A stretch of 64,000 nucleotides of DNA from a virus, in IMG/VR virus record IMGVR_UViG_3300000313_000054; one strand, written 5' to 3'. The notes under the pieces were generated by a model. That model ran no database searches and was not told where the DNA came from. It was given only the letters and a program-made list of their open reading frames with translations. Made by a program: the position numbers and the translations under genes. Shown one piece after another: positions 4,962 to 39,972 of this stretch (within the stretch, counting starts at the first letter, position 1; every line of letters starts with the position of its first letter).

Positions 4962-4990
4962 TTGACATTCTCTGTAGTGCGTGCTAACAT
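4962..4990 (+). promoter_or_regulatory. sigma-70 promoter TTGACA-17-TGcTAACAT; ATG at 4997 lies exactly 6 nt after the -10
   Basis: -35 TTGACA at 4962-4967 and extended -10 TAACAT at 4985-4990 read directly. Confidence 0.6.
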
Positions 4991-4996
4991 AAAAAT

Positions 4997-5254
4997 ATGA
5001 GAAAGATATTTAAGTGGTTGACTAAAAGTAATCATACTTGGTATGACAAAGGATATCATAAAGCGTATCTTATTTTAAGTTGGCTCGTTGTAGTCTTTTT
5101 AATTCCGTTATTCACCTCGATTATATTTATTCACTTGGGGAATATTTTTGAAGCAATCTTTAGTTGGTTAATGTTAGCAAGTGTCATATTAATTGCATTC
5201 TTACTTGAGATGGATATTCAAAAATATAAAAAGTCACTATTGATAAGTAAATAA
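4997..5254 (+). CDS. membrane protein; apparently leaderless mRNA
   Basis: 85-aa ORF starting ATGAGAAAG 6 nt after -10 hexamer; no RBS. Confidence 0.55.
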   Translation: MRKIFKWLTKSNHTWYDKGYHKAYLILSWLVVVFLIPLFTSIIFIHLGNIFEAIFSWLMLASVILIAFLLEMDIQKYKKSLLISK

Positions 5255-5584
5255 GTCAGTGTTATAATCAAAATTAACAGACTTGATAAGCCAACTACCT
5301 TAAATGGCAAGCGCAACATATCAAGTATTACAGAAAGATTTTATAGAGATTAGTTTGCCTGAGCTAGTCTCTATAGAGTCGAAATTAAAAAGTTAATAAG
5401 TAGAAGTTACAGTTGGCTGACAAAACTCAGTTTATAGCGGTTAGTGTGCCAATTACCGACACAGACTGAGATGCTTTAGTGCTTGGGTGTACATGAGAAC
5501 AAACTGGTGAAAATGAGCTTCTATTTTTTAAAAAGTGTATAGTCCTTAGCGTTGATGTAATTCGATGTTAAGATGGTATTTAAT

Positions 5585-5657
5585 GCCGATGTAGCTCAGT
5601 GGTAGAGCAAACCATTTGTAATGGTAAGGTCGGTAGTCCGATTCTAACCCATCGGCT
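5585..5657 (+). tRNA. tRNA-Thr (anticodon UGU), 73 nt, no encoded CCA
   Basis: GCCGATG/CATCGGC acceptor, GCTC...GAGC D-arm, anticodon loop TTTGTAA; hand folded, one G-A mismatch in T-stem. Confidence 0.6.
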
Positions 5658-5668
5658 CTTTTAAAAAT

Positions 5669-5790
5669 TGAATATAGAAGTCTTAGGTGGCGGAATAGGT
5701 AGACGCTGTGGACGCTATGCGATAAAGGTGCAGCCATCATTGACAAGCTCTTAATATCCATGCGATTGAACCTAAGTAAGTAATTTATTT
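5669..5790 (+). ncRNA. unresolved tRNA-like segment (5' half resembles tRNA-Leu: TGGCGGAATAGGTAGACGC) of abnormal length
   Basis: strong similarity of the D-arm region to bacterial tRNA-Leu but no canonical anticodon or T arm found by hand; CCTAAG complementary to acceptor lies about 95 nt downstream. Confidence 0.25.
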
Positions 5791-5799
5791 ATTTAGGAA

Positions 5800-6350
5800 T
5801 GACCATGCAAGACACAAACGTAGAGCATCTAAGGTGACAATGGCAATACTGGTTTACGAGGCGAAAGCACTACGAATTTAAAGAAACAAGGATATTGCTC
5901 AAATCCTTAGACTAAGACTTTTATAGATAACCGAAATATTATAATGTCTACGACTTTTTAGCATGACAGAATAATAAATTAGGTTTGCGTCTGAGAGAGT
6001 CGTTCTTACGATTCGTTATAGCTTAATTGCTATACTTAGTCGCCTTTATTTAGTGGTGGTAATGGCCGAAAGTAGTTAAGGCACGATATGTTTAGTCAAT
6101 TAGGCTAAATGAAAAAGGTAAGCGTGATGTGAGTAAAATCGATTGAATCTCACTAGGCCATCCACCCAATTTAAAAGTTTCATGTTCGATTTAATGTTTC
6201 GTCTTTATGGGGTGTATGGATAGACTATCCAGAGTCGAAAAAGGCTACGTGTCTGGACACATTGGAACGTAGTCGTATGCTAGTAAATGGGGTAAAGGCG
6301 TTTGTATTCTATAGCGAAAGCATGAACCGCAAACACCCCATATTTAGAGT
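5800..6350 (+). ncRNA. approximately 550-nt ORF-free, locally GC-enriched segment with long-range complementarity (GGGGTGT at 6207 vs ACACCCC at 6337); unassigned structured RNA candidate
   Basis: no ORF of 60 aa or more on + strand, multiple hairpins, sits between tRNA genes. Confidence 0.3.
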
Positions 6351-6355
6351 TTAAA

Positions 6356-6529
6356 ATGAAAAGACAAAGTAACAAAATAAATAATGTAACCATAGTTTCT
6401 AAAGAGGAAGCTAATAAAATTTGGGATGAGTCGTGGGAAGAATACTTAAAATTAATAAAAGAACAAAAACTTGACGACCCTAAAAGGATACCTACAAGCG
6501 AATTTATGCATAGACATTGTGTGATTTAA
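6356..6529 (+). CDS. hypothetical small protein (57 aa)
   Basis: ATG ORF MKRQSNKINNV... ending 2 nt before tRNA-Ser. Confidence 0.4.
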   Translation: MKRQSNKINNVTIVSKEEANKIWDESWEEYLKLIKEQKLDDPKRIPTSEFMHRHCVI

Positions 6530-6531
6530 GT

Positions 6532-6616
6532 TGAGAGTTGGCAGAGAGGTCTATTGCAACCGTCTTGAAAACGGTGGACGAAAGTCTCAGAGGTTCAAAT
6601 CCTCTACTCTCAGCCA
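6532..6616 (+). tRNA. tRNA-Ser (anticodon UGA), type II with long variable arm, CCA encoded
   Basis: acceptor TGAGAGT/ACTCTCA, anticodon stem ACCGT/ACGGT with loop CTTGAAA, variable arm GAC-GAAA-GTC, T-arm AGAGG-TTCAAAT-CCTCT, ends GCCA. Confidence 0.8.
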
Positions 6617-6620
6617 ATAC

Positions 6621-6719
6621 TGGTGAGTTGGCGAGTGGGTGTAAGCCAGTAGTCTCGAAAACTACCAGACGACCTTAATAAGGCATCGTCCGTGAGTTCG
6701 AATCTCACCTCATCAGCCA
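6621..6719 (+). tRNA. tRNA-Ser (anticodon CGA), unusually long (99 nt) with about 25-nt variable arm, CCA encoded
   Basis: acceptor TGGTGAG/CTCATCA (one G-U), anticodon stem GTAGT/ACTAC with loop CTCGAAA, T-arm GTGAG-TTCGAAT-CTCAC, ends GCCA. Confidence 0.7.
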
Positions 6720-6837
6720 ATAATTTTAAGTCTATGCACCATGTGTGTAAAAGATAACGAAGTCCCTTGATCTAATGTTTAAAATTAAGTAGCCTCTTTT
6801 GCAGAGTCGGCTAGGGGATTGGGACTTCAGATTTTTT

Positions 6838-6872
6838 AACCGTTAGATGTAATTCGTCTAACGGTTTTTTGT
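6838..6872 (+). terminator. rho-independent terminator closing the tRNA island
   Basis: perfect 10-bp stem AACCGTTAGA/TCTAACGGTT followed by TTTTTTGTTG. Confidence 0.85.
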
Positions 6873-6889
6873 TGTCTAAAATTTGGGTA

Positions 6890-6919
6890 TTGACTTATTG
6901 ACACGTAGTGGTATATAAT
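6890..6919 (+). promoter_or_regulatory. sigma-70 promoter TTGACT-18-TGgTATAAT; ATG at 6926 is 6 nt after -10
   Basis: -35 at 6890-6895, -10 at 6914-6919. Confidence 0.65.
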
Positions 6920-6925
6920 TAAAAT

Positions 6926-7105
6926 ATGAGAAGAAAAGGATGTGAAACAAGCATGAATTATATTTTTGTTCCAATGATAAATTATAGGAATAGGTATCTG
7001 ACAAAAGGGTTGGTCTTAATGGAATTATATTGGGTTGGAAAAGAATTTGGGGCTACTCAAACTAAAACAATTGCGATGATGAAAAATTCTGGATGGTGGA
7101 AGTAA
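6926..7105 (+). CDS. hypothetical small protein (59 aa), apparently leaderless (starts ATGAGAAGAAAAGG)
   Basis: ORF MRRKGCETSMNYIFVP...; no RBS; ATG at predicted +1. Confidence 0.45.
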   Translation: MRRKGCETSMNYIFVPMINYRNRYLTKGLVLMELYWVGKEFGATQTKTIAMMKNSGWWK

Positions 7106-7130
7106 ATTCTTTTAAAAGGAAGGATGAACG

Positions 7131-7340
7131 ATGAATTGGTTAATGAAGTTATTTAAACCTGAAAGTTCACGGCTTGAATGTCTACGTGTTTTAGATGAAA
7201 CAGAAGTAATGGTGAATAAAATTCAAGTAAGTCTACATAATAGTGAAAAACAAAACGAAATACTCTTTGCAAATTTAAAAGGAACAATGCCAGAAGTTCC
7301 AAGTGTTTATATGAAAGCTTTTAAAGATGGGAAGGTGTAA
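7131..7340 (+). CDS. hypothetical protein; full-length paralog of the fragment at 2-121
   Basis: RBS aaaaggaagga; 69 aa. Confidence 0.65.
   Translation: MNWLMKLFKPESSRLECLRVLDETEVMVNKIQVSLHNSEKQNEILFANLKGTMPEVPSVYMKAFKDGKV
7207..7321 (+). repeat. 115-bp direct repeat of window positions 1-115 (one mismatch)
   Basis: direct sequence comparison. Confidence 0.9.
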
Positions 7341-7344
7341 AAAT

Positions 7345-7620
7345 ATGAGAAGAAAACAAGGTCAATTAGTTCCATTAGAAGAAGAAATACTATCAGTAAT
7401 TAAGTCGTTAAATGGTGAGTCGTATGGCTATTTAATTCTTAAAAACTTGTCTAAAAAATGTGATACTTCAACATTATATCGAGCATTAAAAAGACTTGTT
7501 AAGATGGGTAAGTTAGAAAGCCATTTGGAAGATTTAAAACCCTGGCCTCTATTAGATGAAAATTTAAAAGAAGAATGTAGACCTATTAGACGGTTGTATA
7601 AATTAATTGAGAAGGAATAG
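7345..7620 (+). CDS. PadR-like winged-helix transcriptional regulator
   Basis: ESYGYLILKNL...STLYRALKRLVKMGKLES matches the PadR recognition helix and wing pattern; start moved to ATG with RBS aaggtg. Confidence 0.55.
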   Translation: MRRKQGQLVPLEEEILSVIKSLNGESYGYLILKNLSKKCDTSTLYRALKRLVKMGKLESHLEDLKPWPLLDENLKEECRPIRRLYKLIEKE

Positions 7621-7622
7621 AT

Positions 7623-8213
7623 ATGAAAGAGAGCTATGAACTTTATTGGAAGGACTATTATAAAATATTACAAGTACATCCGTTGGCTGAGCCAGAAGTA
7701 ATAAAAGTATCTTATATAAAATTGGCGCAGATGTATCATCCAGATCACAACATCGATTTAAAATCAGAGAATAAAATGGTAGATTTGAATGAGGCTTTTG
7801 GGATTATTGGCAATCCTATTAAAAGAGAATCTTACGATATTCAGTATAACCAACCGCATTTAAGTTGTGAACAAAAAAATAGTTTAAATAATGACGTTGA
7901 AAAACGTAGTAATAATGAAATAAATATCAGAAATAAAATATTATCTATATATGAAGAACAGTTAAATGATTCCAAAAGAAGTGGTGGATGTTTTTGGAAC
8001 AAATATATTAAAGAACAATGGGCTGATAGAGTAAATGAAATTATTGACTGGCTGAATATCCGTAGTAAACCATCACATATGGGGAAATGTTTATTTTGTA
8101 AAAGAGAGACAGTAATATTTAATGCAGATTCTACTTTGGGACAATGTATTGACCCTAATTGCGGGTATGTCATAGCCCCTGAGTTGCGTAGTGTTCATAA
8201 AATCAGGTGGTGA
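7623..8213 (+). CDS. J-domain (DnaJ-like) protein with C-terminal CxxC..CxxC zinc ribbon
   Basis: DYYKILQVHP...IKVSYIKLAQMYHPDHN contains the HPD motif of J domains. Confidence 0.75.
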   Translation: MKESYELYWKDYYKILQVHPLAEPEVIKVSYIKLAQMYHPDHNIDLKSENKMVDLNEAFGIIGNPIKRESYDIQYNQPHLSCEQKNSLNNDVEKRSNNEINIRNKILSIYEEQLNDSKRSGGCFWNKYIKEQWADRVNEIIDWLNIRSKPSHMGKCLFCKRETVIFNADSTLGQCIDPNCGYVIAPELRSVHKIRW

Positions 8214-8248
8214 ATGTCGAGTTATAGAATTAAATTAGGAGTATTAAA

Positions 8249-8593
8249 ATGCCAGACCCCAAAAATTACGTAGATAAAAATTTTACATTTGTTAAATCTC
8301 ACGTGAGGAGGAAAAGAATATTTTCCAATAAACCATCAAGTGACAAGTGGGTTTATATTTTTGTATTACTAATAGTTGCAAGTATCATACTATACTTCTT
8401 TTGGGAATTTATACTTGTCGGAATAGCGGTCATTGGTTTATTGTTACTCATAGTTAAAAGAAAAAGAATTAAACTATGGTATATGAAAATAGTAAATAGA
8501 AAGTTTGATGAAAAAACTAAATTTAATGATGACTATGAATTAAATAAATCAAAGTATGATTATTATAAATCAAAGAATGAAAGAAAGGAGTAA
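8249..8593 (+). CDS. membrane protein
   Basis: 114 aa with two TM helices. Confidence 0.55.
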   Translation: MPDPKNYVDKNFTFVKSHVRRKRIFSNKPSSDKWVYIFVLLIVASIILYFFWEFILVGIAVIGLLLLIVKRKRIKLWYMKIVNRKFDEKTKFNDDYELNKSKYDYYKSKNERKE

Positions 8594-8598
8594 TAATA

Positions 8599-8949
8599 AT
8601 GGAAGAAAATAAAGAGAACAATCAAGAAGAAGATTCTTTAGAATGTCAGTATTGTAGACTCGAAGGACAGTTAGTTAAAATAAAATATGGAATAATCTCT
8701 CAGATTTTAGAAGCTGGTTTGAATTTTAAAAACTATTACGAAAGTTGTCTTGAAAATGGAGTCTTATCTGAAGATAAAAAGACAGAATTACAAACTAGAT
8801 ACAACACTACTTTAAACAATTATTTCGATGTTGTGAACTTAGTTTGGAACGAAGATATTGACGAAGATTGTGACGATTGTAGCCTCAATCCCAGTACTCT
8901 TGATAGCGAATTAAAAGATATTTTGGATAAGAAGAAGGATGGGAAATAA
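8599..8949 (+). CDS. hypothetical acidic protein with CQYC motif
   Basis: 116 aa ORF. Confidence 0.55.
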   Translation: MEENKENNQEEDSLECQYCRLEGQLVKIKYGIISQILEAGLNFKNYYESCLENGVLSEDKKTELQTRYNTTLNNYFDVVNLVWNEDIDEDCDDCSLNPSTLDSELKDILDKKKDGK

Positions 8950-8951
8950 AT

Positions 8952-9251
8952 ATGCAATTTGAAGTAAGTGAAGAAGAAGTGGTGAGGATTGTACGTAGAA
9001 GAGAAGGATACTCTCTTCTAAAATCTTTTTGGAAGAGTCCACTATCTAAAGGGTTGATAATCGTAGGTTTTTCAACACTCATTGTAACTTTTATATTAAA
9101 TACAGTTGATGCCTCAAAGTGGTGTTCAGAAATTATAAGTGGAATATCTTTGGTAACGTGGTTGATTTTAATTAAAAGAATCTATGGTAGATGTCGTTCT
9201 GATGCTAAGACACTACTCTTTGCTTTAAAAGATAAAATACAAGACCCATAA
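8952..9251 (+). CDS. membrane protein
   Basis: 99 aa ORF, hydrophobic core. Confidence 0.5.
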   Translation: MQFEVSEEEVVRIVRRREGYSLLKSFWKSPLSKGLIIVGFSTLIVTFILNTVDASKWCSEIISGISLVTWLILIKRIYGRCRSDAKTLLFALKDKIQDP

Positions 9252-9331
9252 AAATATTAATAAAGTATATTCTGGATGTAAAATAGTTTTTGGATATTTT
9301 GGATAAGAAAAAAGAGAAATGAAAAAGAGAA

Positions 9332-9553
9332 ATGAAAAAGTTATTTAAGTCAATTAAGAATATTGGTATGAACTTAATGTACTTGTTGTTATTAATTACC
9401 ACTTGTTACCAGATATTTACAACCGAAAATTGGTGGTCAATATGGCAATATAAATTAGTTTTTATCATACTTGTTATAGCCTCTCCATTATATCTGTATG
9501 AGTTTATTAAGTGGGTGAAAGGCAAACTGGATAAGAAGAAAGAGGGGAAATAA
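9332..9553 (+). CDS. small membrane protein; C-terminal EFIKWVKGKLDKKKEGK motif recurs at 33334-33384
   Basis: 73 aa; preceded by a 13-nt tandem duplication gaaaaagagaaat x2 at 9308-9333. Confidence 0.5.
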   Translation: MKKLFKSIKNIGMNLMYLLLLITTCYQIFTTENWWSIWQYKLVFIILVIASPLYLYEFIKWVKGKLDKKKEGK

Positions 9554-10263
9554 TGTATCAGAAAGGGTATCACCATACAGAAGAAGAAAAAGAGAAGATT
9601 AGACAAGGTAAGTTAGGCGCAAATAATCCTAATTTTGGTAAGAAATTATCACCGGAAACTTGTGCTAAGATGAGTGCATCACGAACTGGTAAAAAACATC
9701 CTAAGACCGAAACAATGATTGCAAAACAAAAAGAGTCATTAAAAAAGTTTTATAATTCAGAAGATGGTTCAGTTTTTAAAGAACATCTAAGTGAAGTGAA
9801 TAAGGGAACATCTTGGCATAAAGGATTTAGACATGAATTTTCAGACGAAACTAAAAAGAAAATGGGAGTAATACAAAAGAAAAAGTGGCAAGACCCTATT
9901 GAAAGAGACAAACGTGTTGACGCAATTATGAGTGCTGGTAAGCAAGTTCCTAATTATAGAGAATTACAGTTATTATCATATTTGAATGAGGCGAAGTCTG
10001 GTTGGGAGTTTATTGGTAATGGTAAATTACATGGTGAAAAATTCAAGGTTGGTGGTAAATGTCCAGATTTTATATTAGAGGGTACTAAATTATTATGTGA
10101 ACATTATGGTGCTGGATATCATACTGAAGATCAAGTACAACCTAGAATAGAATTTTTTAAACAACTTGGATATGCAACCTTGATTATTTGGCAGAAAGAA
10201 TTAAAATATAAAGAAAAAGTAATACAACGGATTAAGGAATTTGTGGCAGAAAATTATTTTTAA
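9553..10263 (+). CDS. homing-endonuclease-like protein: NUMOD3-type repeats plus C-terminal Vsr/EDxHD-like nuclease domain
   Basis: repeated GKKLSPETCAKMSASRTGK / GFRHEFSDETKKKMGV motifs; C-terminus CPDFILEG...CEHYGAGYHT. Confidence 0.55.
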   Translation: MYQKGYHHTEEEKEKIRQGKLGANNPNFGKKLSPETCAKMSASRTGKKHPKTETMIAKQKESLKKFYNSEDGSVFKEHLSEVNKGTSWHKGFRHEFSDETKKKMGVIQKKKWQDPIERDKRVDAIMSAGKQVPNYRELQLLSYLNEAKSGWEFIGNGKLHGEKFKVGGKCPDFILEGTKLLCEHYGAGYHTEDQVQPRIEFFKQLGYATLIIWQKELKYKEKVIQRIKEFVAENYF

Positions 10264-10272
10264 AATTGCCTA

Positions 10273-10301
10273 TTGACAAGCATAAAAATGTGTGCTACAA
10301 T
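10273..10301 (+). promoter_or_regulatory. sigma-70 promoter TTGACA-17-TGcTACAAT driving the structured RNA locus
   Basis: -35 at 10273-10278, -10 at 10296-10301; upstream aaaattgcctattgac shared with the promoter at 57517. Confidence 0.7.
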
Positions 10302-10481
10302 CTAATTAATAGCTTGAAAGAGCGATTTTAGAGGTCGAGTCTCAAATAAATATTTAGCAATCCGAGTAGCAATATTCGAGGTTGCTTTTTGTTTACGAGA
10401 GATTTTAATAGCTCGAAAGGGCGTGAGTCGGAAGTCAAATTTTTAAATGCAGATGATCTTGGGTTGAAGATACAGCCCCTT

Positions 10482-10641
10482 TATACAGTAATGTATATCG
10501 AATAACCCTGAATATCGGTAAAAGTCTGAGATGATAATGCCGAGGGACAGCCCGAAAGGGAAGCCCGTAGAGACTACCAAGGGGCGACTTAGAAAATAAG
10601 CTGATGGCATAGCCCGAACTGCAATGAAAAACAAATTGCAG
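10482..10641 (+). repeat. structured module copy R1
   Basis: TATACA-gtaa-TGTATA hairpin, aaccctgaatatcgg, CCC-GAAA-GGG, CTTA-gaaaa-TAAG, CTGCAAT-gaaaaacaa-ATTGCAG. Confidence 0.6.
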
Positions 10642-10654
10642 AGTAACAAAAATA

Positions 10655-10966
10655 TTGCTTATCTTCGCAGCCATTTTCGTGTACGTTGGTGTTAACCTGG
10701 AACCTGGTTTGAACACTACCGTCAGCACTATCACTACTCCTACCTATTCCAGTGGTGTTGCTGGTCTTAACGGAGTAATCATGATTGTTTTCGCAGCTAT
10801 GATTATCTTCGGCGTAAAATTACAATGCGCCACTACGAAGCGATTCGTAGTGCAAACCCTGAATATCGGTGGAAGCCTGAAACGGTCACGCCGAGGGACA
10901 GCCCTGAAAAGGGAAGCCCGTAACGACTACCAAGGGGCAACTCTAGTGATAGAGCTGGTGGCATAG
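10655..10966 (+). CDS. small hydrophobic peptide ORF embedded between R1 and R2 (TTG start; alternative ATG at 10787 has RBS GGAG)
   Basis: NTTVSTITTPTYSSGVAGLNG matches the C-terminus of CDS 131-457 (8 of the first 12 residues identical) with mostly synonymous DNA differences; TM segment(s) then K/R-rich tail. Confidence 0.4.
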   Translation: MLIFAAIFVYVGVNLEPGLNTTVSTITTPTYSSGVAGLNGVIMIVFAAMIIFGVKLQCATTKRFVVQTLNIGGSLKRSRRGTALKREARNDYQGATLVIELVA

Positions 10967-10995
10967 TCTGGTCTATAACGAATAACAAGTTATAG
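10831..10995 (+). repeat. structured module copy R2
   Basis: CACTACGAA-gcga-TTCGTAGTG hairpin, aaccctgaatatcgg, CCCT-GAAA-AGGG, CTCTA-gtga-TAGAG, CTATAAC-gaataacaa-GTTATAG. Confidence 0.6.
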
Positions 10996-11407
10996 TTAAC
11001 ACAACGAGTCAAACAAATGAGTGCTGCTGCCTAATAGCAGAAATGGGGAGTGGGTCAAAAGCTCACTCCCCTACTCATACAAAAAATTTCAAAAATAAAA
11101 ATGAGGTAATATGAAAAAGGGAAAGAAACTGAAACTACCTAGCTATGGGATGAAAGACCCGTTAAAAATGAAAAACAAGAAAGATTTTTACAATGACAAG
11201 TCAGGTAGTTTAAAAAAGTTAATGAAATAACAGGAGCGTTTAAAATGAAAACAACTAAGGTCAAAAAATGGGGAATGATGTCTTGAAAGAACAAACCAAT
11301 TAAATCAGAAATGGCACGATTTAAGAAAGATGCTGATATCCATAATGTAAAGAAAAATCCCTTTAAATAAGTCCTAAAGTATCCCTTTTAAATTAGAAAT
11401 TTCTAAG

Positions 11408-11448
11408 TCACACTTGACAATGTGTTAGGTGTGGCTTTTTGTTTTTTA
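11408..11448 (+). terminator. putative terminator (hairpin CACAC...GTGTG then CTTTTTGTTTTTT)
   Basis: stem-loop followed by T-run. Confidence 0.4.
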
Positions 11449-11465
11449 GAGTAGAAAAATAGTTG

Positions 11466-11494
11466 TTGACAAGATTGATTGGTAGTGATAATAT
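11466..11494 (+). promoter_or_regulatory. sigma-70 promoter TTGACA-17-TGaTAATAT; ATG at 11501 is 6 nt after -10
   Basis: -35 at 11466-11471, -10 at 11489-11494. Confidence 0.65.
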
Positions 11495-11500
11495 GTATGT

Positions 11501-11824
11501 ATGGATAAGAAAAAAGATCAAATAATTGGAGTTGTAATTGGATGCGTTCTTTCGATTTTATTAATAAGTGGTTTTGTTTGGCTGTTAAATTATGTAGATA
11601 AGAATACCCCGCCAATAGAAATTAAAGATATAACAAAGCAGGTATCGGCAATAAGTTATGATGAAAGATATGGAACTACGAAGATATTTTTCTCAGATGG
11701 TTGGTGGTTTTATGTAAGTGGGAAGTATGAATTATCTTCAGGACTAACTTATAGAATTGTTTATAAAGAAACGAAACCGTATCCTAGTATTGATACAATA
11801 CAAATTGTAAATGAGGAGAAATAA
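11501..11824 (+). CDS. N-terminally membrane-anchored protein; apparently leaderless
   Basis: 107 aa; TM helix at residues 8-30. Confidence 0.55.
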   Translation: MDKKKDQIIGVVIGCVLSILLISGFVWLLNYVDKNTPPIEIKDITKQVSAISYDERYGTTKIFFSDGWWFYVSGKYELSSGLTYRIVYKETKPYPSIDTIQIVNEEK

Positions 11825-11825
11825 A

Positions 11826-12500
11826 ATGGAAAATAAAACTGTAAAATGTAAATTCTTCGACCCTGAAAAGCCAAAAATAATCGAGAAAAATTTTAAATTA
11901 ATTAGAGGGAACTGTGTTATCTACCGTGAACATATTTATCAAATTAGACCTGATTTCCAAGAACCATTTTACTTTAGAGTAGACAGTCGTTTCCCTATAA
12001 GTCAAGAGTCTTTTAGTAGATTAAAAAGTGAAGAAGTTTATCTAAATCGTAATCGAGAAAATAAAGGTGGAATAAATATGGAAATTGAAAAGCGTCCATT
12101 ATTAGATGGTAAATATCAGAAAGAATGGTTTAGAAAATATAGTAAGCGAATTGTTAATGACTATTATATTTTGGGACTAGAAAAAACTAAAGAAAAGTAT
12201 GGTATTAGTTCTCAGTTAGTGTCAGTAGCTATTAAAGTAAATCCGAAATCTACTGGATATGATGGGAAAGGTATGGTTGATGTGCTTGAATTATCTGAAG
12301 AAATTACACAGAGTAAAATACAGAATAGAATGGAATTAATGAAATCATTTATAGGTGCAAAGCCGTTAGAGTTTAGATTTTCTTTGACAATTACTGAGTC
12401 TGATCTTGACTTTATCAAAGAAGAAAATTTAGTAGATGTATGGCGAGTAATTAGTCTATTATATCTAGCCAAAAAAGAAAAGAATAAAGAGGACAAATAA
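11826..12500 (+). CDS. hypothetical protein (224 aa)
   Basis: start moved to the ATG preceded by RBS gaggag. Confidence 0.6.
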   Translation: MENKTVKCKFFDPEKPKIIEKNFKLIRGNCVIYREHIYQIRPDFQEPFYFRVDSRFPISQESFSRLKSEEVYLNRNRENKGGINMEIEKRPLLDGKYQKEWFRKYSKRIVNDYYILGLEKTKEKYGISSQLVSVAIKVNPKSTGYDGKGMVDVLELSEEITQSKIQNRMELMKSFIGAKPLEFRFSLTITESDLDFIKEENLVDVWRVISLLYLAKKEKNKEDK

Positions 12501-12899
12501 ATGTCATCGGGTGTTATTTTAGGAATTTGTTTAGTGATGTTTTTTTGTTTTGTGGTATTCACTTCGAATTTTAGCAAGAATAAAGTGTTGGTAAAATATT
12601 CATATAGGGGTAAAGTAAAAAGTAAACTTTGTGGTTTAGAAAAGAGTAATTTTGGTATAGTTTTTAGATTAAATGGTCAAGATTATGCGCAAAAGATTAA
12701 TTCTGAAAACGTAAGATTTGAATTATATCACAGAGGATTTTTTATACTGTTTCCTCAATACGTATTATGTGTTGATTTAGCTAAAGAGGAAGAAGATTTG
12801 GAGTCACAGCGTATAAAAAAGAATTTTGAAATGTTAAAAGATGTTAATAGGATTCAGTTAAGAGATATTAAAAAAAGGATAGAGGATAGTAAGAAATGA
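12501..12899 (+). CDS. hypothetical protein with N-terminal TM helix
   Basis: 132 aa. Confidence 0.55.
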   Translation: MSSGVILGICLVMFFCFVVFTSNFSKNKVLVKYSYRGKVKSKLCGLEKSNFGIVFRLNGQDYAQKINSENVRFELYHRGFFILFPQYVLCVDLAKEEEDLESQRIKKNFEMLKDVNRIQLRDIKKRIEDSKK

Positions 12900-13141
12900 A
12901 ATGTATATACTGTGGTGAAGATTCATTTATATCAGAAGATGATGTTGATAGACATATAGTAGAAGGACATCCAGAATACTCACCTGTAGGTGATATGAAA
13001 GAATCGAGAAAGACTTTAAATTATACGTGGGCATTTGGACTTACAGGTGTAGTCTATGGACAAAAAGGTAATAATAAAAAAGAAGAAGTCTTAGAAACGT
13101 TCAAGTATTTTTTGAGAGAATTAATGAAGTCGGAAGGATAA
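12896..13141 (+). CDS. small zinc-finger-like protein (CIYCGE...HIVEGH)
   Basis: 81 aa, ATGA overlap. Confidence 0.55.
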   Translation: MKCIYCGEDSFISEDDVDRHIVEGHPEYSPVGDMKESRKTLNYTWAFGLTGVVYGQKGNNKKEEVLETFKYFLRELMKSEG

Positions 13142-13147
13142 AAAGAG

Positions 13148-13522
13148 ATGAAAAGCAGTTATATATATTGGTTAGTTTGTTTATCGATAGTAGTTTTTGC
13201 TATTGTAGGTTTTATATGTGTTAGTTTTATTTTCCCTAGGTATAGTTATCAAGGTGTCGCTGAAATGTCACAAAGTCAGTACTCAAGTTTTATGAAAGAG
13301 TACGGGTTTAAAGACAAAGATCAACAGAATTTTGCGACAGCTTACAACCAACAAAGCGATAAATTAATTGTGACTTATAATTTTGAAAGTAGGTCTACCA
13401 AATTAGAAAAGTATGGTATCGAAGATGGTAAAACTAATTATGGTGATGTACCATTAATGGTATTCCTTGGCAGTGTTGCTATTTTTGTGCTCATTCTTTG
13501 TAGACCATCAAAAGACGATTAA
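13148..13522 (+). CDS. membrane protein
   Basis: 124 aa with TM helices at both ends. Confidence 0.55.
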   Translation: MKSSYIYWLVCLSIVVFAIVGFICVSFIFPRYSYQGVAEMSQSQYSSFMKEYGFKDKDQQNFATAYNQQSDKLIVTYNFESRSTKLEKYGIEDGKTNYGDVPLMVFLGSVAIFVLILCRPSKDD

Positions 13523-13547
13523 ATTAAAAAAATATAGGATAAAAAAT

Positions 13548-13889
13548 ATGGGATTTTTTAAAGTAGGTTTAGTCGCTATTGGTATCGTAGTCTTTAGTAT
13601 TGCAGTAGCATGTTTAATAACATTAGAGGTAACAAATGCTGGTGAACAAACTTCAGTACTTGTAAAAATAGAAAATCAAGAACAAGAAAAGATTATACTC
13701 TATAGTGATAGAGAAGTAGATTGTATCTCGTTAATGGATACACCCTTTGATGGTAATATTAAAATTCTTACAGCAAAAGTACATCGTCCTAGTAACATTT
13801 GGATTAAGTATGATGCGAACCAATTTCTTTTAAAGTGGTTAAGCGAAAAGATGATAAGTAGCTATCCTAACTTTGTAGTAGAAAATTAA
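13548..13889 (+). CDS. signal-anchored protein
   Basis: internal ATG of track ORF 13467-13889 giving MGFFKVGLVAIGIVVF; avoids overlap. Confidence 0.5.
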   Translation: MGFFKVGLVAIGIVVFSIAVACLITLEVTNAGEQTSVLVKIENQEQEKIILYSDREVDCISLMDTPFDGNIKILTAKVHRPSNIWIKYDANQFLLKWLSEKMISSYPNFVVEN

Positions 13890-13916
13890 AAATAAAAATA
13901 TAGGAGAAGTAATCAA

Positions 13917-14471
13917 GTGTTTCGTAAAAAATCTGTAGTGTTTTCAATGGTAGGTATCGTAGGAGTTTTAATTTTAGTAGGCGTATTTTTCTTTGGTTCA
14001 CAAGTATCAAGTGCTTGGGGACTCACAAAAGTTAACAGCGCAAAGGTTCAAATTCTTGGTTCAAATGCAGAGATTTTTACAGATGTAAATTGTACTATTC
14101 CATTAACAGCAACAACTAATTTAGACTTTGGAACAATAAGAGAAGGTTCAACATCAACAAATACTGTCAAACTTTTTATCAAAAATAGCGGTACGGACAA
14201 CATTACAACGACTGGCTCAGTAAGCGGTTTGGATAGCCATTTAACATTAGTAGATTCAAAGTTTGGAGTTATTGGTACGAATACACCCTTGTATCAGACA
14301 GAAGTTTCACATATTAATGCTAACGGATTTAAAATTATAGACGTTCCCCTAACACCATTAGGAGCAGGATTAGTACAAGTTTTAAATTTGAACATTACTG
14401 CAACAGCAGGAGCACCTATAGGTTCGACAATTAATTTTAACTTACAAATAAATTCGACTTCAGGTTATTAA
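13917..14471 (+). CDS. secreted Thr-rich beta-type protein (signal peptide)
   Basis: GTG start 10 nt after AGGAG; hydrophobic N-terminus. Confidence 0.55.
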   Translation: MFRKKSVVFSMVGIVGVLILVGVFFFGSQVSSAWGLTKVNSAKVQILGSNAEIFTDVNCTIPLTATTNLDFGTIREGSTSTNTVKLFIKNSGTDNITTTGSVSGLDSHLTLVDSKFGVIGTNTPLYQTEVSHINANGFKIIDVPLTPLGAGLVQVLNLNITATAGAPIGSTINFNLQINSTSGY

Positions 14472-14480: not shown

Positions 14481-14510
14481 TTGACAATTAGGTTGTTTTA
14501 ATGATAATAT
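14481..14510 (+). promoter_or_regulatory. sigma-70 promoter TTGACA-18-TGaTAATAT
   Basis: -35 at 14481-14486, -10 at 14505-14510. Confidence 0.65.
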
Positions 14511-14566: not shown

Positions 14567-16396
14567 ATGGTTACATGGATTGTCTTGGGTATTATCGGTT
14601 TAGCATTTCTAATTTTTATCTTACCTGGTTTCTTTATCATTGGTGCTAGAGATGTAGGTGTCTTAACTCGTAAGAACTTTGGCACAAGATTACCTGAAGG
14701 TCACATCATTGCTTGTAATGGGGAAATTGGTATTCAAGCAGATGTTTTAAGACCTGGTTTTTATTGGAGATTCCCTATTTTGTGGGGAATTAAAAAAGAC
14801 AAGATTATTGTAGTCAATCCTGGTGAAGTAGGTTTGGTAAAATCTGTTGACGGTGTTACACTTTTAGCCAATAGAGTACTTGGTGATGAAGTCGAATGTG
14901 ATTCGTTCCAAGATGCTAAGAAATTTCTAACAACTGGTGGTTATCGTGGTGCTCAAATTGGTTTTCTAAGACCTGGTACTTATCGAATTAATACTTCAGC
15001 ATTTGATGTAGCAATTCAAAAAGCTACAATCGTTCCTGAGAATAGTATTGGTATCGTAATGGCGAATGACGGTATTCCGTTGTCAACTAGTTACGTAATT
15101 GCACCTAGACCGAAGGATTCAGATAATCAAGATGTCGCAGATTCATCATTATTCCAGAATGGTCAGTTGTTCATTAAGAGCAAGGGCTATCGTGGTGCTC
15201 AACTTGATACTTTGCAACCTGGTACTTATTATATCAATACGTTACTCTTTAAAGTGAACATTCAACCCATTGCAGAAGTACCGCCTGGTTATGTAGCAGT
15301 CATTCGTTCTAACGTAGGTATAGAACTTGAAAGGTCAGTTGAGAAACCCATTGATTCAGAGAGTTCAAATCTAAAAGATAAAGTCCATGCGGACGTTGAA
15401 AGATTACTCACAACTGATAAGTACACTAGAGGTATTTGGCGTGAACCGATTGCTCCTGGTAAATATAACTTGAATCCGCTTGCCTTTACACCCTATCTAG
15501 TTCCTACTTCAGCAGTTACTATTGATTGGGCAGCAGAGGGCAGGATTGGAACTGAAGTTAAAGGTGTTACTAATGAAGGCGTACTATACAAGTTTAATCC
15601 CTTGAAAGTTACATCTAAAGATGGTTTTCAACTTGAAGTAAACATTAGAATTGTCATTCGTATTACGCAAGAAAATGCATCGTTTATCATTGCTAGATTT
15701 GGTTCAGTAGATAACTTGATTGACCAGATTGTTCATCCCTTGATTGATGCGTCTTTCAGAAATAAAGCTGGTGAAAAGAAAGCCATTGATTTTTTCCAGA
15801 GTCGTACTGACTTACAGGTTGAAGCGTTGAATCATGCAAAATCTGTTTTTGAAGAGTACAATGTGTTAGCTCAGAATTTACTAGTCGCTTACATTGATAT
15901 TCCTCAGAGTTTGTTGGATACTCAGACTCAAAAAGAAATCGCATTGCAACAACAAGCTCAGTTTGTCGAACAAGCTAAGGCACAAGAACAGAATATTGCA
16001 GTACAAGAAAAAGCTGCAAGAGCTTTGAAGCAAAAAGATGTCATCAATGCTAAATTGGAAATTGATATCAAGACAGATTTGGCTAGTGCTAGAATGAAAG
16101 AAGCTGAAGGTGAATCTGTTTACTTACAGAAAACTAATGCTGCAACTGGTAAAGGTTTGGCTGAAGGTTATCAAGCTCAAAAGGATGCTTTGGGTGAGGA
16201 AGGAACTACTCTAGTCAACATTATTAAAGCGTTAGCTGATAAAGGATTGAAGTTTGTTCCCGAAGTTCAAGTCGGTAATAGTGAGGGTGGATTAGGTGCT
16301 CTCATCGGTTCTTTAACCGCAAAGTTTGGTAAAGAATTAGCTCAAAAACCTGAAGTTAAAACTATCGAAGTAGATTCTAAATCTAAAGAAGACTAA
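14567..16396 (+). CDS. SPFH/flotillin-like membrane protein (YqiK/FloT-like)
   Basis: N-terminal TM, SPFH-like core, duplicated GYRGAQ..L(R/Q)PGTYxIN module, Ala/Gln/Glu-rich C-terminal repeats. Confidence 0.65.
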   Translation: MVTWIVLGIIGLAFLIFILPGFFIIGARDVGVLTRKNFGTRLPEGHIIACNGEIGIQADVLRPGFYWRFPILWGIKKDKIIVVNPGEVGLVKSVDGVTLLANRVLGDEVECDSFQDAKKFLTTGGYRGAQIGFLRPGTYRINTSAFDVAIQKATIVPENSIGIVMANDGIPLSTSYVIAPRPKDSDNQDVADSSLFQNGQLFIKSKGYRGAQLDTLQPGTYYINTLLFKVNIQPIAEVPPGYVAVIRSNVGIELERSVEKPIDSESSNLKDKVHADVERLLTTDKYTRGIWREPIAPGKYNLNPLAFTPYLVPTSAVTIDWAAEGRIGTEVKGVTNEGVLYKFNPLKVTSKDGFQLEVNIRIVIRITQENASFIIARFGSVDNLIDQIVHPLIDASFRNKAGEKKAIDFFQSRTDLQVEALNHAKSVFEEYNVLAQNLLVAYIDIPQSLLDTQTQKEIALQQQAQFVEQAKAQEQNIAVQEKAARALKQKDVINAKLEIDIKTDLASARMKEAEGESVYLQKTNAATGKGLAEGYQAQKDALGEEGTTLVNIIKALADKGLKFVPEVQVGNSEGGLGALIGSLTAKFGKELAQKPEVKTIEVDSKSKED

Positions 16397-32143: not shown

Positions 32144-32172
32144 TTGACACGATTGGCTAGTAGTGGTAATAT
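32144..32172 (+). promoter_or_regulatory. sigma-70 promoter TTGACA-17-TGgTAATAT
   Basis: -35 at 32144-32149, -10 at 32167-32172. Confidence 0.65.
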
Positions 32173-32343: not shown

Positions 32344-32345
32344 AG

Positions 32346-34404: not shown

Positions 34405-34437
34405 ATTCACTTTTGAATCGTTAGTTGGAGGAAGTAT

Positions 34438-34983: not shown

Positions 34984-34992
34984 GAGGTTTAA

Positions 34993-35463
34993 ATGGCTGA
35001 TAAAGACGAAGAATTAGATGATTTAGAAGATGAGAAAGTTCCAAACTATGAGGACTTAGTAACTTTAGAACCAGAACGTGAAGTTACTGTAGATAATTAT
35101 ACTCCACCTTCTAAAACTATAGACGAAGAAGAAGAATCTAGTGACCGATTGACTGATAAACAAGCGGTTATGAAACTTTTATATCCTAAGTATCACGATG
35201 ATGAATTAGATGAATTAGCTAGGTCTGCTGTAACATCCAGAATCTTCTCAGATAACTTCATAGATAAGATGAATATGATTGCACTAACACGTATTGAAAA
35301 ACATATCTACGACAAAGACTACGACTTAATTTTTGACTTAAATAAAATACAAGACTTTCTTTCAAGAGGATATGAAGGGCGTGGGATTGCAGACTTGTTG
35401 GAACTTGCTGGTGCTGAAACTTCAGAAGAATTGGATAAAATTTCTCAGAGTTTAGGACTGTAA
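34993..35463 (+). CDS. highly acidic protein
   Basis: 156 aa, D/E-rich N-terminus. Confidence 0.55.
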   Translation: MADKDEELDDLEDEKVPNYEDLVTLEPEREVTVDNYTPPSKTIDEEEESSDRLTDKQAVMKLLYPKYHDDELDELARSAVTSRIFSDNFIDKMNMIALTRIEKHIYDKDYDLIFDLNKIQDFLSRGYEGRGIADLLELAGAETSEELDKISQSLGL

Positions 35464-35466
35464 AAT

Positions 35467-36198: not shown

Positions 36199-36207
36199 GT
36201 GGTCTAA

Positions 36208-37176: not shown

Positions 37177-37325
37177 GGTTGTGATAAAAATAAAAGAAAG
37201 GAGGTTAGCTAAGTCCTGATATTAGTGGTACACAAAAACAGTGATGTCGTAAAGCTGAAAATTGCGACAAATAAAAATTAAATAAACAACTTTAGGGAAG
37301 TAAAATCAATTTTCTTTAGCAAGGT

Positions 37326-37362
37326 GGGGGTGATGATATGAGCGTATCATCACTCCCAAATT
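37326..37362 (+). other. stable 13-bp hairpin without a U-tract in the intergenic region
   Basis: GGGGGTGATGATA-tgagcg-TATCATCACTCCC. Confidence 0.4.
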
Positions 37363-37380
37363 AAAAAGGTGGTGAATCAG

Positions 37381-37761
37381 ATGTTGACTTTTGCGTTTAT
37401 TGGTGTTTTAGCGTTAGTTCTTACCATCATTTCATTCAGATGGTACAATTTACTTTTGTCTTTTGTAGCTTGTTTGGCGTGGCTTGCTTTATGGGCTTAC
37501 AATTTGAGTTACCCAATGACAGGTGTAACTTCCAATTCATTTATTGGTGACGCTATTAACTTCTTACTTGTCCTTCTCGCTATTGTTACCATGCTAATTT
37601 ATTTTAGAAATCGTGGTAAAGCAGCAGGTTCATTTAATGCCAGTAGTAGTGATGAAGGTGTAAGACCTCAATTAAGTAATTCACAAACTAGGAATTTAAT
37701 GGACTTAGATACTAACGAATACAAAGCGTATTTAAAAGCTCGAAGAACTAATAGGAAATAG
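37381..37761 (+). CDS. membrane protein
   Basis: ATG after RBS aaggtgg; 3 TM helices. Confidence 0.55.
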   Translation: MLTFAFIGVLALVLTIISFRWYNLLLSFVACLAWLALWAYNLSYPMTGVTSNSFIGDAINFLLVLLAIVTMLIYFRNRGKAAGSFNASSSDEGVRPQLSNSQTRNLMDLDTNEYKAYLKARRTNRK

Positions 37762-37763
37762 AA

Positions 37764-37988
37764 ATGGATATTTATAGGTTGACTCCTCAAGGTGAAATGG
37801 TATCTCATACTATTAGACCTAATCTAAACAAGCCTAGATCACCGTATCGTTGGGCTATTATTTATAGGCTACGAGAAGGGTGTAAGGACAAGGATTCATT
37901 ACTTGATATGACAGGTGCTTCTTCAGGCGATTTATCATATTTACAAAGTAAGGGCGTTATTACTAAACGAGATGAAGTAGTTATTTAA
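37764..37988 (+). CDS. hypothetical protein
   Basis: 74 aa. Confidence 0.5.
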   Translation: MDIYRLTPQGEMVSHTIRPNLNKPRSPYRWAIIYRLREGCKDKDSLLDMTGASSGDLSYLQSKGVITKRDEVVI

Positions 37989-38003
37989 AAGGAGAAAAAT
38001 AAA

Positions 38004-38237
38004 GTGGCTGGTATTTTTGATATGTTTAAACCGAAACAAAAAAGTATAGACGAACTGGAAGAAGAAACAGAAAATCTTGAAGCAGCTAATCGTGAGAAAG
38101 ATCAAGAATTATCATACGAACAAAAGAAATTAGCAATAGCAGAATTGAAAGCAAGAGGTCTGAAAGTCTCTCAGTTTAGCGGTAACACTTTGGAAGATAA
38201 ATTTAAAAGTGCCGTGCGCTGGATTCGCAGTCACTAA
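38004..38237 (+). CDS. hypothetical coiled-coil protein
   Basis: GTG start after aaggag. Confidence 0.5.
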   Translation: MAGIFDMFKPKQKSIDELEEETENLEAANREKDQELSYEQKKLAIAELKARGLKVSQFSGNTLEDKFKSAVRWIRSH

Positions 38238-38379
38238 TATTATTTTTAAAGAGGTTCAGATGATAGATCAGAAATTCAAAGAGCCTAGCAAAAATAGAGT
38301 AAGAATTGGGAAACGTCTAGTATCTAAAAAACAATTGAGAAATAGAATAGAACTTGCTCAGAAAAATAAAAAATAATCA

Positions 38380-38409
38380 TTGACTTTAATATGTATGTAT
38401 TGGTATAAT
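38380..38409 (+). promoter_or_regulatory. sigma-70 promoter TTGACT-18-TGgTATAAT; ATG at 38416 is 6 nt after -10
   Basis: -35 at 38380-38385, -10 at 38404-38409. Confidence 0.65.
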
Positions 38410-38415
38410 GAGAAT

Positions 38416-39972
38416 ATGAGAAGAAAAATAATTATCTCAGTTTGCTTGATTTCATATGTACTATTTATTACTTTACCAGCTGTACTCCATCGATATATTT
38501 ATCCCAATTCAGGTGATGACTCTGCCACAATCCTTAATATGTTCCGTTTTGACAATTTAATGCAGTTAAATCATTATGGATATGCAATAATTGGATACCC
38601 TCTTAATTGGTTAGCATCTGTGACATCTATTCCACTGGCCTCTTTATATTTATGGTTCAGTTATATTGCATTGGTTGGAGTAGGACTTAGTTTATTCTTC
38701 ATTTTAACTAAGTTAGTTAACTATAAAGCTGGTTTACTTGCGTTAGTTATTCCGACTTTGCTATCGAGAGGTTTTATAACCCTATTTGACTACGGTATGA
38801 TCTTTAATATTATTAGTTCTGGCATTCTATTGCCGTTCTTGATTTATTTTTCAATTAAATATGTAATCACAAATCGAAAAGTCTACCTAATCTCATCTAT
38901 ATCACTCACATTTATATACAGTATCTTTCATACGATGGGTATTTATCTAGCTCCAATATGTTTAGTCATGTTAATGTTCTATATAATTTATAAAAGAAAA
39001 GAAGTTAATAATTCAATTATCCTATTTCTCGATGTGGTGATTATAACTAATTTGGTAGGAACAATATTAAGAATTTATCCATCAAGATTTTCTATTACTA
39101 ATACTGATATTCCAATTAGCCAGAGTTTAACAAACTTTTACGTGTACGTTTTGGTCTTGAGCCTTGTGATACTTTTATTCCTATATATTTTGCGTAAGAA
39201 TAGAATATTTAAGTGGCTATCATATAGTCTCATAGTCTTAATGGGTTGTACTTTAATCTGTGAATATCTTGTAATGAAACCAGAGGCGAGTTGGATAGTC
39301 AATGGTGTTACATCTGGTTCTGGTAAGATTATGCCGATTGATTGGATGTTAGAAATTATAAATCCAGTAACATTAATTGCGTTGTTTTTATCTATACTTT
39401 TAATATGGGGTTTAATTAAGGATTTAAAAACAGAAACTAAGTTATTAATTTTTGTTTATGTATTATTATCTTTAATGTTAGCAACCTTCGCTTTATTAGG
39501 TTTGACTCCTACACCAGATAGAATGACATTTGATTTAGCGAATATGATAGGTGTATTAACAGCTATTTGCGTTGGTTTAATGTGGAATTATAAGAAGTTA
39601 CATATAATAGTGGTAGCTATAGTGGTGATAAGTTTTTATTCAACATCTTTTGGATGGTGTAGTTATCGAAACGCTGTAAAGCCAGTCGATGTTGAGACTA
39701 TGGAATATTTAGATACATTGAACTATAGTTCTTATACTTGTTCTCCGACTATAAATCCAGACATCTACGATCAGTTTACTAAAGCGAAGTATAATAAAAA
39801 TTCTGATGTGCTTATAGTCCGTAATTTAGCTATGACCCCACAGAGCGACCCTACTAGTTTAGCTTATAATCCTCATGGTCAAACATCAACCGAAGGGTTT
39901 AAACTTGATAAAGAATTTAGTGAAACAATGCGTGGTATAGAGATTAAAATAGATATTTATATTAAGGAATAA
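38416..39972 (+). CDS. large polytopic membrane protein (about 12 or more TM); Wzy/GT-C-like polymerase or glycosyltransferase candidate; leaderless start
   Basis: the ORF track extends the start upstream of the promoter; in-frame ATGAGAAGAAAA at the predicted +1. Confidence 0.55.
   Translation: MRRKIIISVCLISYVLFITLPAVLHRYIYPNSGDDSATILNMFRFDNLMQLNHYGYAIIGYPLNWLASVTSIPLASLYLWFSYIALVGVGLSLFFILTKLVNYKAGLLALVIPTLLSRGFITLFDYGMIFNIISSGILLPFLIYFSIKYVITNRKVYLISSISLTFIYSIFHTMGIYLAPICLVMLMFYIIYKRKEVNNSIILFLDVVIITNLVGTILRIYPSRFSITNTDIPISQSLTNFYVYVLVLSLVILLFLYILRKNRIFKWLSYSLIVLMGCTLICEYLVMKPEASWIVNGVTSGSGKIMPIDWMLEIINPVTLIALFLSILLIWGLIKDLKTETKLLIFVYVLLSLMLATFALLGLTPTPDRMTFDLANMIGVLTAICVGLMWNYKKLHIIVVAIVVISFYSTSFGWCSYRNAVKPVDVETMEYLDTLNYSSYTCSPTINPDIYDQFTKAKYNKNSDVLIVRNLAMTPQSDPTSLAYNPHGQTSTEGFKLDKEFSETMRGIEIKIDIYIKE

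Follow-up and report, generated by a model that had tools for sequence, protein, structure and literature searches.

Promoters abutting start codons predict leaderless mRNAs in a phage-like metagenomic element

In the 64,000-nucleotide (nt) stretch of viral DNA held as IMG/VR record IMGVR_UViG_3300000313_000054 (the window, meaning this stretch at its full length), a gap of exactly 6 nt separates a –10 hexamer from the ATG of the open reading frame (ORF) that follows it at four positions, 4997, 6926, 11501 and 38416, so that the A of the start codon is the predicted first transcribed nucleotide (+1). This spacing (N6), described in an initial annotation and found again when the coordinates were re-read, raises the question of whether the corresponding operons are transcribed into leaderless mRNAs and whether their first genes form an expression class of their own. 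It is argued here that the promoter–ATG fusions probably do give rise to leaderless mRNAs, a reading that appears solid at 11501 and 38416, probable at a fifth site, 54633, and perhaps applicable to 4997 and 6926 as one of two modes of initiation. The window has a guanine–cytosine (GC) content of about 33%, carries essentially all of its genes on the plus strand, to which all features described below belong, and holds three tRNAs, an ORF of 2586 amino acids (aa) and a 15-kb sugar/glycan operon. Known relatives were found for almost none of its proteins. The same element was recovered in Joint Genome Institute (JGI) and Logan metagenome contigs of 61–67 kb, and the other contigs containing P0001, the public gene call for the protein starting at 38416, are this same element; scans of IMG/VR found neither relatives of the window proteins nor the element itself. 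Because of the scarcity of protein relatives, the metagenome matches and the lack of an IMG/VR match, the window is treated as a phage-like element.

The fusions were first considered against the promoters of the window as a whole. A strict promoter was defined as a –35 hexamer with at most one mismatch, a spacer of 16–18 nt, a TGn extension and a –10 hexamer with at most two mismatches, the downstream sequence being ignored. Ten such matches were found on the plus strand and one on the minus strand, compared with 1.07 ± 1.03 in 200 dinucleotide shuffles. Together with two slightly looser cases, the ten matches constitute a set of 12 strong promoters, all on the coding strand and all at gene boundaries, which delimit the transcription units of the window. 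Most of them are preceded by an A-rich tract, and the seventh base after the –10 hexamer is A in nine of the 12. Non-coding stretches follow four promoters (5240, which precedes the tRNAs, 10273, 18693 and 57517), leaders of 18–50 nt with clear Shine–Dalgarno (SD) sequences follow three (14481, 32144 and 53525), and an ATG is found at the predicted +1 in four cases and at +3 in one (54596). Of the eight promoters from which protein-coding operons begin, five directly adjoin the first cistron. The probability that at least four of 12 promoters have an ATG at N6 is 1.1e-4; it becomes 5e-3 given an A at +1, and 3e-7 when the ATG must in addition open a reading frame of 55 codons or more. Additionally, in a distance profile that pooled the window with its relatives and counted the first ATGs of ORFs with 50 or more codons after TGnTAnnnT, a peak was observed at a distance of 6, with six matches compared with zero to two at each other distance from 0 to 24. 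The fusions therefore exceed chance. The opposite explanation, in which A/T-rich promoter-like strings happen to adjoin ATGs, can point to the abundance of loose –10-like strings (179 TGnTAnnnT on the plus strand) and to the absence of an ATG peak at distance 6 after such strings when ORF context is ignored; faced with the excess over shuffles, the N6 probabilities and the pooled peak, it deserves almost no credence.

The two clearest sites are 11501 and 38416. At 11501, promoter P3 comprises TTGACA (11466–11471), a 17-nt spacer, TGa with TAATAT (11489–11494) and the hexanucleotide gtatgt, immediately followed by the ATG of ORF s3 (11501–11824), which encodes a 107-aa protein with an N-terminal transmembrane (TM) segment and heads the operon 11501–14471. 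This ATG is the sole start codon of the ORF, whose coding score of 0.28 is typical. A strong intrinsic terminator (11405–11437; a 15-bp stem followed by TTTTGTTTTTT) ends 29 nt before the P3 –35 hexamer. Since strong terminators lie just upstream of the promoters at 11466 and 6890, there is no room for a hidden leader at either. At 38416, promoter P4 comprises TTGACT (38380–38385), an 18-nt spacer, TGg with TATAAT (38404–38409) and gagaat, and occupies the 39-nt gap that follows a gene ending at 38376. The start, which reads ATGAGAAGAAAAAT, opens ORF s4 (38416–39972), the first gene of the glycan operon, encoding a 518-aa polytopic membrane protein. The public gene call (P0001) begins instead at ATG 38395 and gives 525 aa. 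Three homologues were detectable, with 30–36% identity, two of which have intact N-termini (P0002 and P0004, beginning MSRSRK... and MSTRSK..., respectively), which line up with MRRK rather than with the 7-residue extension of the public call. The next in-frame starts, in turn, have no SD (pairing energy close to 0), and initiation at them would remove the first TM segment, which is conserved. The idea that the true starts are downstream in-frame codons with a ribosome-binding site (RBS) thus fails at both positions, the N-terminus being given at 11501 by the only available start and at 38416 by the homologues, and a leaderless reading of the two sites is well supported by their sequence.

At 4997, promoter P1 (TTGACA at 4962–4967, a 17-nt spacer, TGc with TAACAT at 4985–4990, aaaaat) occupies the 38-nt gap after a gene ending at 4958. 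The ATG at its predicted +1 reads ATGAGAAAG and opens ORF s1 (4997–5254), which encodes an 85-aa protein with two predicted TM segments, beginning MRKIFKW.... The region before 6926 is more intricate, since two promoters overlap there. P2a (TTGACT at 6890–6895, 18 nt, TATAAT at 6914–6919, taaaat) predicts +1 at the ATG of ORF s2 (6926–7105), which reads ATGAGAAGAAAAGG and encodes a soluble 59-aa protein, MRRKGCETS..., whereas P2b (TTGACA at 6898, 16 nt, TAAAAT at 6920–6925) predicts +1 near 6932. In addition, a TG is in register only with an alternative hexamer, TATATA, located 8 nt from the ATG. The initial annotation had placed an extended –10 box at all four positions, which is correct for 4997, 11501 and 38416; at 6926 the TATAAT is not extended. 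An intrinsic terminator (6838–6866; a 12-bp stem and a T run) lies 24 nt before the P2 –35 hexamer and ends the preceding tRNA unit.

A fifth case, overlooked in the initial annotation, is found at 54633. Promoter P5 (54596–54624) comprises TTGACA at 54596, a 17-nt spacer and TGa with TAAAAT, followed by gtgtatAG, and overlaps the end of the upstream gene. The ATG of ORF s6 (54633–54800), which encodes a 55-aa Zn-ribbon-like protein, stands 8 nt after the –10 hexamer, which predicts a leader of only 2 nt (AG). A second ATG, at 54639, reads ATGAGAAAAG. The sequence of this site gives reasonable support to leaderless or near-leaderless initiation.

All five fused or near-fused starts are ATG, and none has an SD. 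When SD strength was expressed as the free energy (dG, in kcal/mol) of pairing with the anti-SD, values of +0.6, –2.8, –3.0, –2.8 and –0.2 were obtained at 4997, 6926, 11501, 38416 and 54633, respectively, whereas most of the approximately 97 other genes ranged from –6 to –13. The earlier statement that no SD is possible accordingly holds for the ATGs at +1 (+0.6 to –3.0); it does not extend to the genes at 4997 and 6926 as wholes, in which SD-like sequences precede downstream starts. Two further candidate properties of the starts were rejected. Accessibility of the mRNA 5′ end was not distinctive overall, being predicted as unpaired in three of the five cases and not for s4. A downstream tether to the anti-SD was not general, since only s1 and s2 stood out, both of which have alternative starts. 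A codon-score test of the short N-terminal extensions was uninformative because the segments are too short.

Several observations weigh against leaderless initiation. At 4997, an in-frame TTG at 5018 lies behind AGAAAG (dG –5.7), and at 6926, an in-frame ATG at 6953 lies behind AAAAGGA (dG –6.9). The initial annotation took the ATG at +1 as the annotated start throughout, and its coordinates are right, although public gene calls vary at three of the sites: besides the 525-aa call at 38416, s1 is called either as 78 aa from TTG 5018 (P0126) or as 85 aa, and s2 either as 50 aa from ATG 6953 (P0125) or as 59 aa. Moreover, a transcript started from P2b would begin downstream of ATG 6926 and lose it. 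Homologue searches with s1 and with s2 returned only the query itself; s1, s2 and s6 all lack homologues and have low-normal coding scores. As for s4, the predicted 5′ end of its mRNA is weakly paired, and its homologues in relatives sit inside operons and overlap the upstream gene, so that the fusion at 38416 is not conserved for this gene. Finally, P1, P4 and P5 are not preceded by terminators, which makes read-through transcripts containing these ATGs internally also likely.

The first of these observations are those expected if, at 4997 and 6926 only, the mRNAs carried short leaders in which the ATG at +1 is incidental and the real starts are TTG 5018 and ATG 6953, an explanation that must be taken seriously for these two sites even if it is somewhat doubtful. 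It agrees with the SD energies, the shorter public calls and the effect of P2b, as well as with anti-SD pairing over positions +4 to +18, which is high at exactly these two sites (among the strongest 12% of genes for s1 and the strongest 4% for s2). Leaders of this kind do occur in the same genome: promoter 32144–32172 is followed by an 18-nt leader (AUAGAAAGGAGCAAGUAA) before ATG 32197, and promoter 53525–53554 by a 20-nt leader with AAAGGA before ATG 53581, the SD beginning at +4 in both (AUAGAAAGGAG in the former). Promoter 53525 also has TAACATaaaaatA in common with P1. However, short leaders are inapplicable to 54633, to 11501, which has no other start, and to 38416, where the next starts have energies close to 0 and would truncate the first TM segment; and even at 4997 and 6926 the ATG at +1 is in frame and open, and a TTG served by an SD of 6 nt makes a weak start. 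Since a 5′-terminal AUG alone suffices for initiation in the bacteria tested (PMC4633059, PMC4965119), both starts may be used. From their sequence, 4997 and 6926 are therefore ambiguous: they may be leaderless, short-leadered or both, and may operate in a dual mode, in which the 5′-terminal AUG and an SD-led start further downstream share one reading frame.

The lack of terminators bears on a different explanation, according to which long read-through transcripts predominate, the SD-less ATGs are initiated internally (by 70S scanning, re-initiation or A/U-rich S1-dependent binding) and the promoter-like sequences are secondary or inactive. The short gaps that separate P1-, P4- and P5-associated starts from upstream stop codons (38, 39 and 17 nt, respectively) and the A/T-rich upstream sequence are compatible with it. 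It is nevertheless improbable, given that terminators precede P2 and P3, that the promoters are strand-specific, close to consensus in sequence and enriched about 10-fold over chance, and that genes of relatives, themselves unrelated, repeat N6 to the nucleotide, a spacing for which internal initiation would not select.

This recurrence was observed in metagenomic relatives of the element. In L001, TTGACA, a 17-nt spacer, TGcTAGTAT and N6 precede the ATG of a 54-aa Zn-ribbon gene, which lies just downstream of a gene whose product is homologous (52% identity) to the 562-aa protein of the glycan locus and is positionally analogous to 54633; a second promoter of L001 has a leader of about 4 nt. 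In L005, a phage-like contig with 32% GC, the arrangement is TTGACT, 17 nt, TGaTACCAT, N6 and ATG, and in L018 it is TTGACA, 17 nt, TGaTAAAGT, N6 and ATGAGAAAG. Leaders of 3 nt were found in L022, L023 and L024. The possibility that s6 is orthologous to the fused genes of the relatives was rejected, since the Zn-ribbon match in L001 is weak (E = 0.01) and the products are ribbon-helix-helix (RHH)-like in L018 and an XRE helix-turn-helix (HTH) protein in L022; judged by sequence comparison, these genes are positional analogues and not orthologues. What recurs across distant relatives is the design and not a particular gene, the s4 homologues there being internal to operons. Searches for close relatives yielded none: IMG/VR scans with s4, s3 and an alignment of the 562-aa protein as queries gave no match, nor did tblastn of s4 against phages, and megablast of 4000–12000 against GenBank phages gave a single 50-nt match, in a tRNA-poor spacer. 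Two other features of the relatives may be recorded, namely a Cas12f/TnpB-like gene in L001 (18348–19487) and, at the end of contig L005 (14025–14094), a promoter-fused ORF beginning MKLSIYAKKLGICYKT, a start that presumably resembles the MerR-like HTH N-terminus of the IS607 type.

Whether the fusions mark a deliberate expression class, such as early genes or genes translated by specialised ribosomes, was examined through their common features. As initially noticed, ATGAGAA opens three of the four fused genes (4997, 6926 and 38416), and the PadR-like gene at 7345–7620 likewise begins ATGAGAAGAAAAC/ATGAGAAGAAAA (MRRK); this gene, however, is internal to an operon and has a strong SD (dG –10.4). 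The motif is found in three of four fused starts compared with two of 97 other genes (Fisher p = 2.4e-4, post hoc), and also at the fused start of L018 and at the second ATG of s6, but not at the fused starts of 11501, L001 and L005. Since the two other genes, 7345 and 27086 (ATGAGAAAGATT), are SD-led, ATGAGAA is not exclusive to leaderless starts. It encodes a common basic N-terminus, MRK or MRRK, by means of the dominant codons AGA and AAA. The enrichment is regarded as unexplained and minor, and could possibly have arisen by duplication of a promoter-plus-start cassette, or because an unstructured 5′ end rich in purines is mildly favoured. The suggestion that the fused genes encode membrane proteins was borne out at 4997, 11501 and 38416 but not by the soluble 59-aa s2 or the Zn-ribbon s6, and the fused first cistrons of the relatives encode small DNA-binding proteins.

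The comparison with the other promoters of the window, which had been recommended, revealed on the one hand that fusions recur, including the fifth case at 54633, and on the other that the same promoter type heads leadered operons: besides 32144 and 53525, promoter 14481–14510 is followed by a leader of about 50 nt with TAGGAGA before ATG 14567. The deliberate class therefore finds no support, leaderless and leadered units having one promoter architecture in common, and the 85 window proteins included no recognisable sigma factor, RNA polymerase, translation factor or rRNA-cutting (MazF-like) nuclease. A regulated class (early, or dependent on specialised or modified ribosomes) marked by ATGAGAA could still invoke the enrichment of the motif, its reappearance in L018 and in the second ATG of s6, and the differential response of leaderless translation to initiation factor 3 (IF3), ribosomal protein S1 and (p)ppGpp (PMC9031893). 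It is very unlikely, considering the shared architecture, the two SD-led genes that carry the motif and the three fused starts that lack it, the functionally mixed products, the absence of any detected translation-modifying or sigma-like protein, and the fact that leaderless initiation in mycobacteria needs no downstream enhancer (PMC4633059). A broader proposal is that this low-GC lineage systematically sets host-type promoters flush with first cistrons, often beginning AUGAGAA, in order to be independent of SD/anti-SD pairing, either because the host is unusually proficient in leaderless initiation or because the phage alters SD-dependent initiation while infecting it, with AGAA acting as a leaderless enhancer; this is a speculative idea and is considered unlikely.

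The preferred reading, leaderless mRNAs produced from promoter–ATG fusions, can be formulated as follows, with start sites predicted from promoter geometry. A host RNA polymerase of the sigma-70/sigma-A type would transcribe the element from about 12 strong promoters, located on the coding strand at operon boundaries and composed of an A-rich upstream tract, TTGACA, 17–18 nt, usually TGn, and the –10 hexamer. Initiation at the seventh nucleotide after the –10 hexamer, an A, would place the AUG at the mRNA 5′ end at 4997, 6926, 11501 and 38416, and 2 nt from it at 54633. Ribosomes, either as 70S or as 30S with fMet-tRNA and initiation factor 2 (IF2), would then bind the 5′-terminal AUG directly, with no SD/anti-SD pairing, while the downstream cistrons would all use ordinary SD sites. 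The likely benefit would be compaction, since the promoter takes up the entire intergenic gap of 17–59 nt. In practical terms, gene callers trained on RBSs are inconsistent over s1 (78 or 85 aa), s2 (50 or 59 aa) and s4 (525 instead of 518 aa), and the promoter-to-ATG geometry fixes where the first gene begins in the 11501 operon and in the 15-kb glycan operon. The analysis provides 12 promoters and two terminators for an otherwise unannotatable element. It also hints that the host of the element tolerates leaderless initiation.

The units headed by the fusions, and those next to them, presented additional features. The 15-kb operon (38416–53521), bounded by the promoters at 38380 and 53525, encodes a nucleotidyltransferase, two epimerase/dehydratases, a DegT aminotransferase, a NeuB-like synthase with a cupin domain, two radical-SAM/SPASM enzymes, a thiamine pyrophosphate (TPP) enzyme, two GT2 glycosyltransferases and the 562-aa GT-C-like membrane protein; in the related loci L001 and L022, the same two membrane proteins are surrounded by different sets of enzymes. 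Upstream of P2, promoter 5240 initiates a 1.6-kb unit (5240–6866) with long unassigned spacers, which ends at the terminator 6838–6866 and contains tRNAs for Thr-UGU (5585–5658), Ser-UGA (6532–6616) and Ser-CGA (6621–6719). A 50-nt stretch of it (6460–6510) is 90–97% identical to unannotated spacers of large Staphylococcus phages. A 115-nt direct repeat with 99% identity links 1–115 to 7211–7325; at the start of the window, a paralogue of the 3′ end of gene 7131–7340 is cut, and another assembly has a 66-aa paralogue there. Repeat and paralogue indicate a duplicated module about 7.2 kb apart.

Upstream of P3, the strong promoter at 10273 is followed by about 1.1 kb (10273–11437) with no SD-led ORF, which is GC-richer and ends at the terminator 11405–11437. 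The sole ORF in it (10655–10966) starts with TTG, lacks an SD and receives a coding score of 0.02. Two tandem copies of a conserved core of about 130 nt (10504–10640 and 10855–10990), approximately 351 nt apart, are 84–91% identical, and the first tandem unit folds with z = –3.3. An Rfam search gave no match even at E ≤ 1, and the region is a candidate for a novel structured non-coding RNA. Its promoter shares 79% identity over 56 nt, upstream sequence included (10246–10301), with promoter 57517, and promoters 57517 and 18693 have the common motif GGAACAACCrAAGCkGATT in untranslated regions of about 100 nt (57517–57642 and 18693–18800); in sequence, the three look like duplicated promoter/leader cassettes. 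The leadered promoter 14481 precedes a 609-aa SPFH/Band-7 protein (14567–16396) with 57–78% identity to more than 1600 proteins, the named matches being annotated as Dehalococcoidia/Chloroflexi. The phage-like contig L005 excepted, the contexts examined, those of six proteins, were all cellular, with 49–52% GC where measured. These relatives were consequently unusable for promoter comparison and offer only a weak host clue; the gene looks like a recent acquisition of host type, which is a possible clue despite the 33% GC of the element. Finally, the 2586-aa protein (ORF 19132–26892) contains at least 14 degenerate repeats at 21390–23033, with a core of about 45–54 nt and a spacing of about 87–99 nt or multiples thereof, and had no match in Pfam or PHROG.

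Leaderless genes are established in several groups of bacteria, where initiation prefers ATG and depends on an AUG at the 5′ end, a leader of minimal length and accessibility (PMC8459731, PMC4633059). In Lactococcus cremoris, about 13% of mRNAs are leaderless, leaders being either shorter than 5 nt or about 40 nt long (PMC10986495), and in Deinococcus the proportion reaches 47–60% (PMC4007540; for Deinococcus-Thermus, see also PMC12340547). The signature of such genes in low-GC bacteria is a TG-extended TAtAAT box whose first base lies about 12 nt upstream of the start codon (Zheng et al. 2011, PMC3160421). The five sites resemble these "TA-led" genes in having TAnnnT at –12 to –7 from the ATG (with the exact 6-nt gap at four sites and 8 nt at 54633), often with TG, no SD, an AUG start, a leaderless first cistron and SDs on the later genes. 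They differ in belonging to an uncultured phage-like element instead of a cellular genome, in having a full consensus –35, in the high share of mRNA promoters concerned (five of eight) and in being known from sequence alone. The arrangement is, as far as can be read from it, the published leaderless-gene signature, with no new mechanism.

Among phages, the gene cI of lambda, transcribed from PRM, is a leaderless regulator gene. Its transcript serves as a model leaderless mRNA (PMC9031893, PMC4965119), whereas the mapped start sites of phage phiKZ include no leaderless transcripts (PMC8244752), so that phages differ in this respect. The similarity to cI consists of a phage gene with an mRNA predicted to start at the AUG and, at 54633, L001, L018 and L022, of a small product of DNA-binding type (Zn ribbon, RHH-like, XRE HTH). 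In contrast to cI, none of the five sites has a divergent promoter/operator switch, every ORF and each of the 12 promoters lying on the plus strand, and the other fused genes encode membrane proteins and head long operons such as the 15-kb glycan operon. The sites at 4997 and 6926 may resemble the 5′-uAUG mRNAs (Beck et al. 2016, PMC4965119), since a predicted 5′-terminal AUG is followed in both by an SD-like element (+4 to +15) and a second start; here, however, the 5′ AUG is in frame, so that it would generate N-terminal isoforms 7 or 9 residues apart and not a separate upstream ORF.

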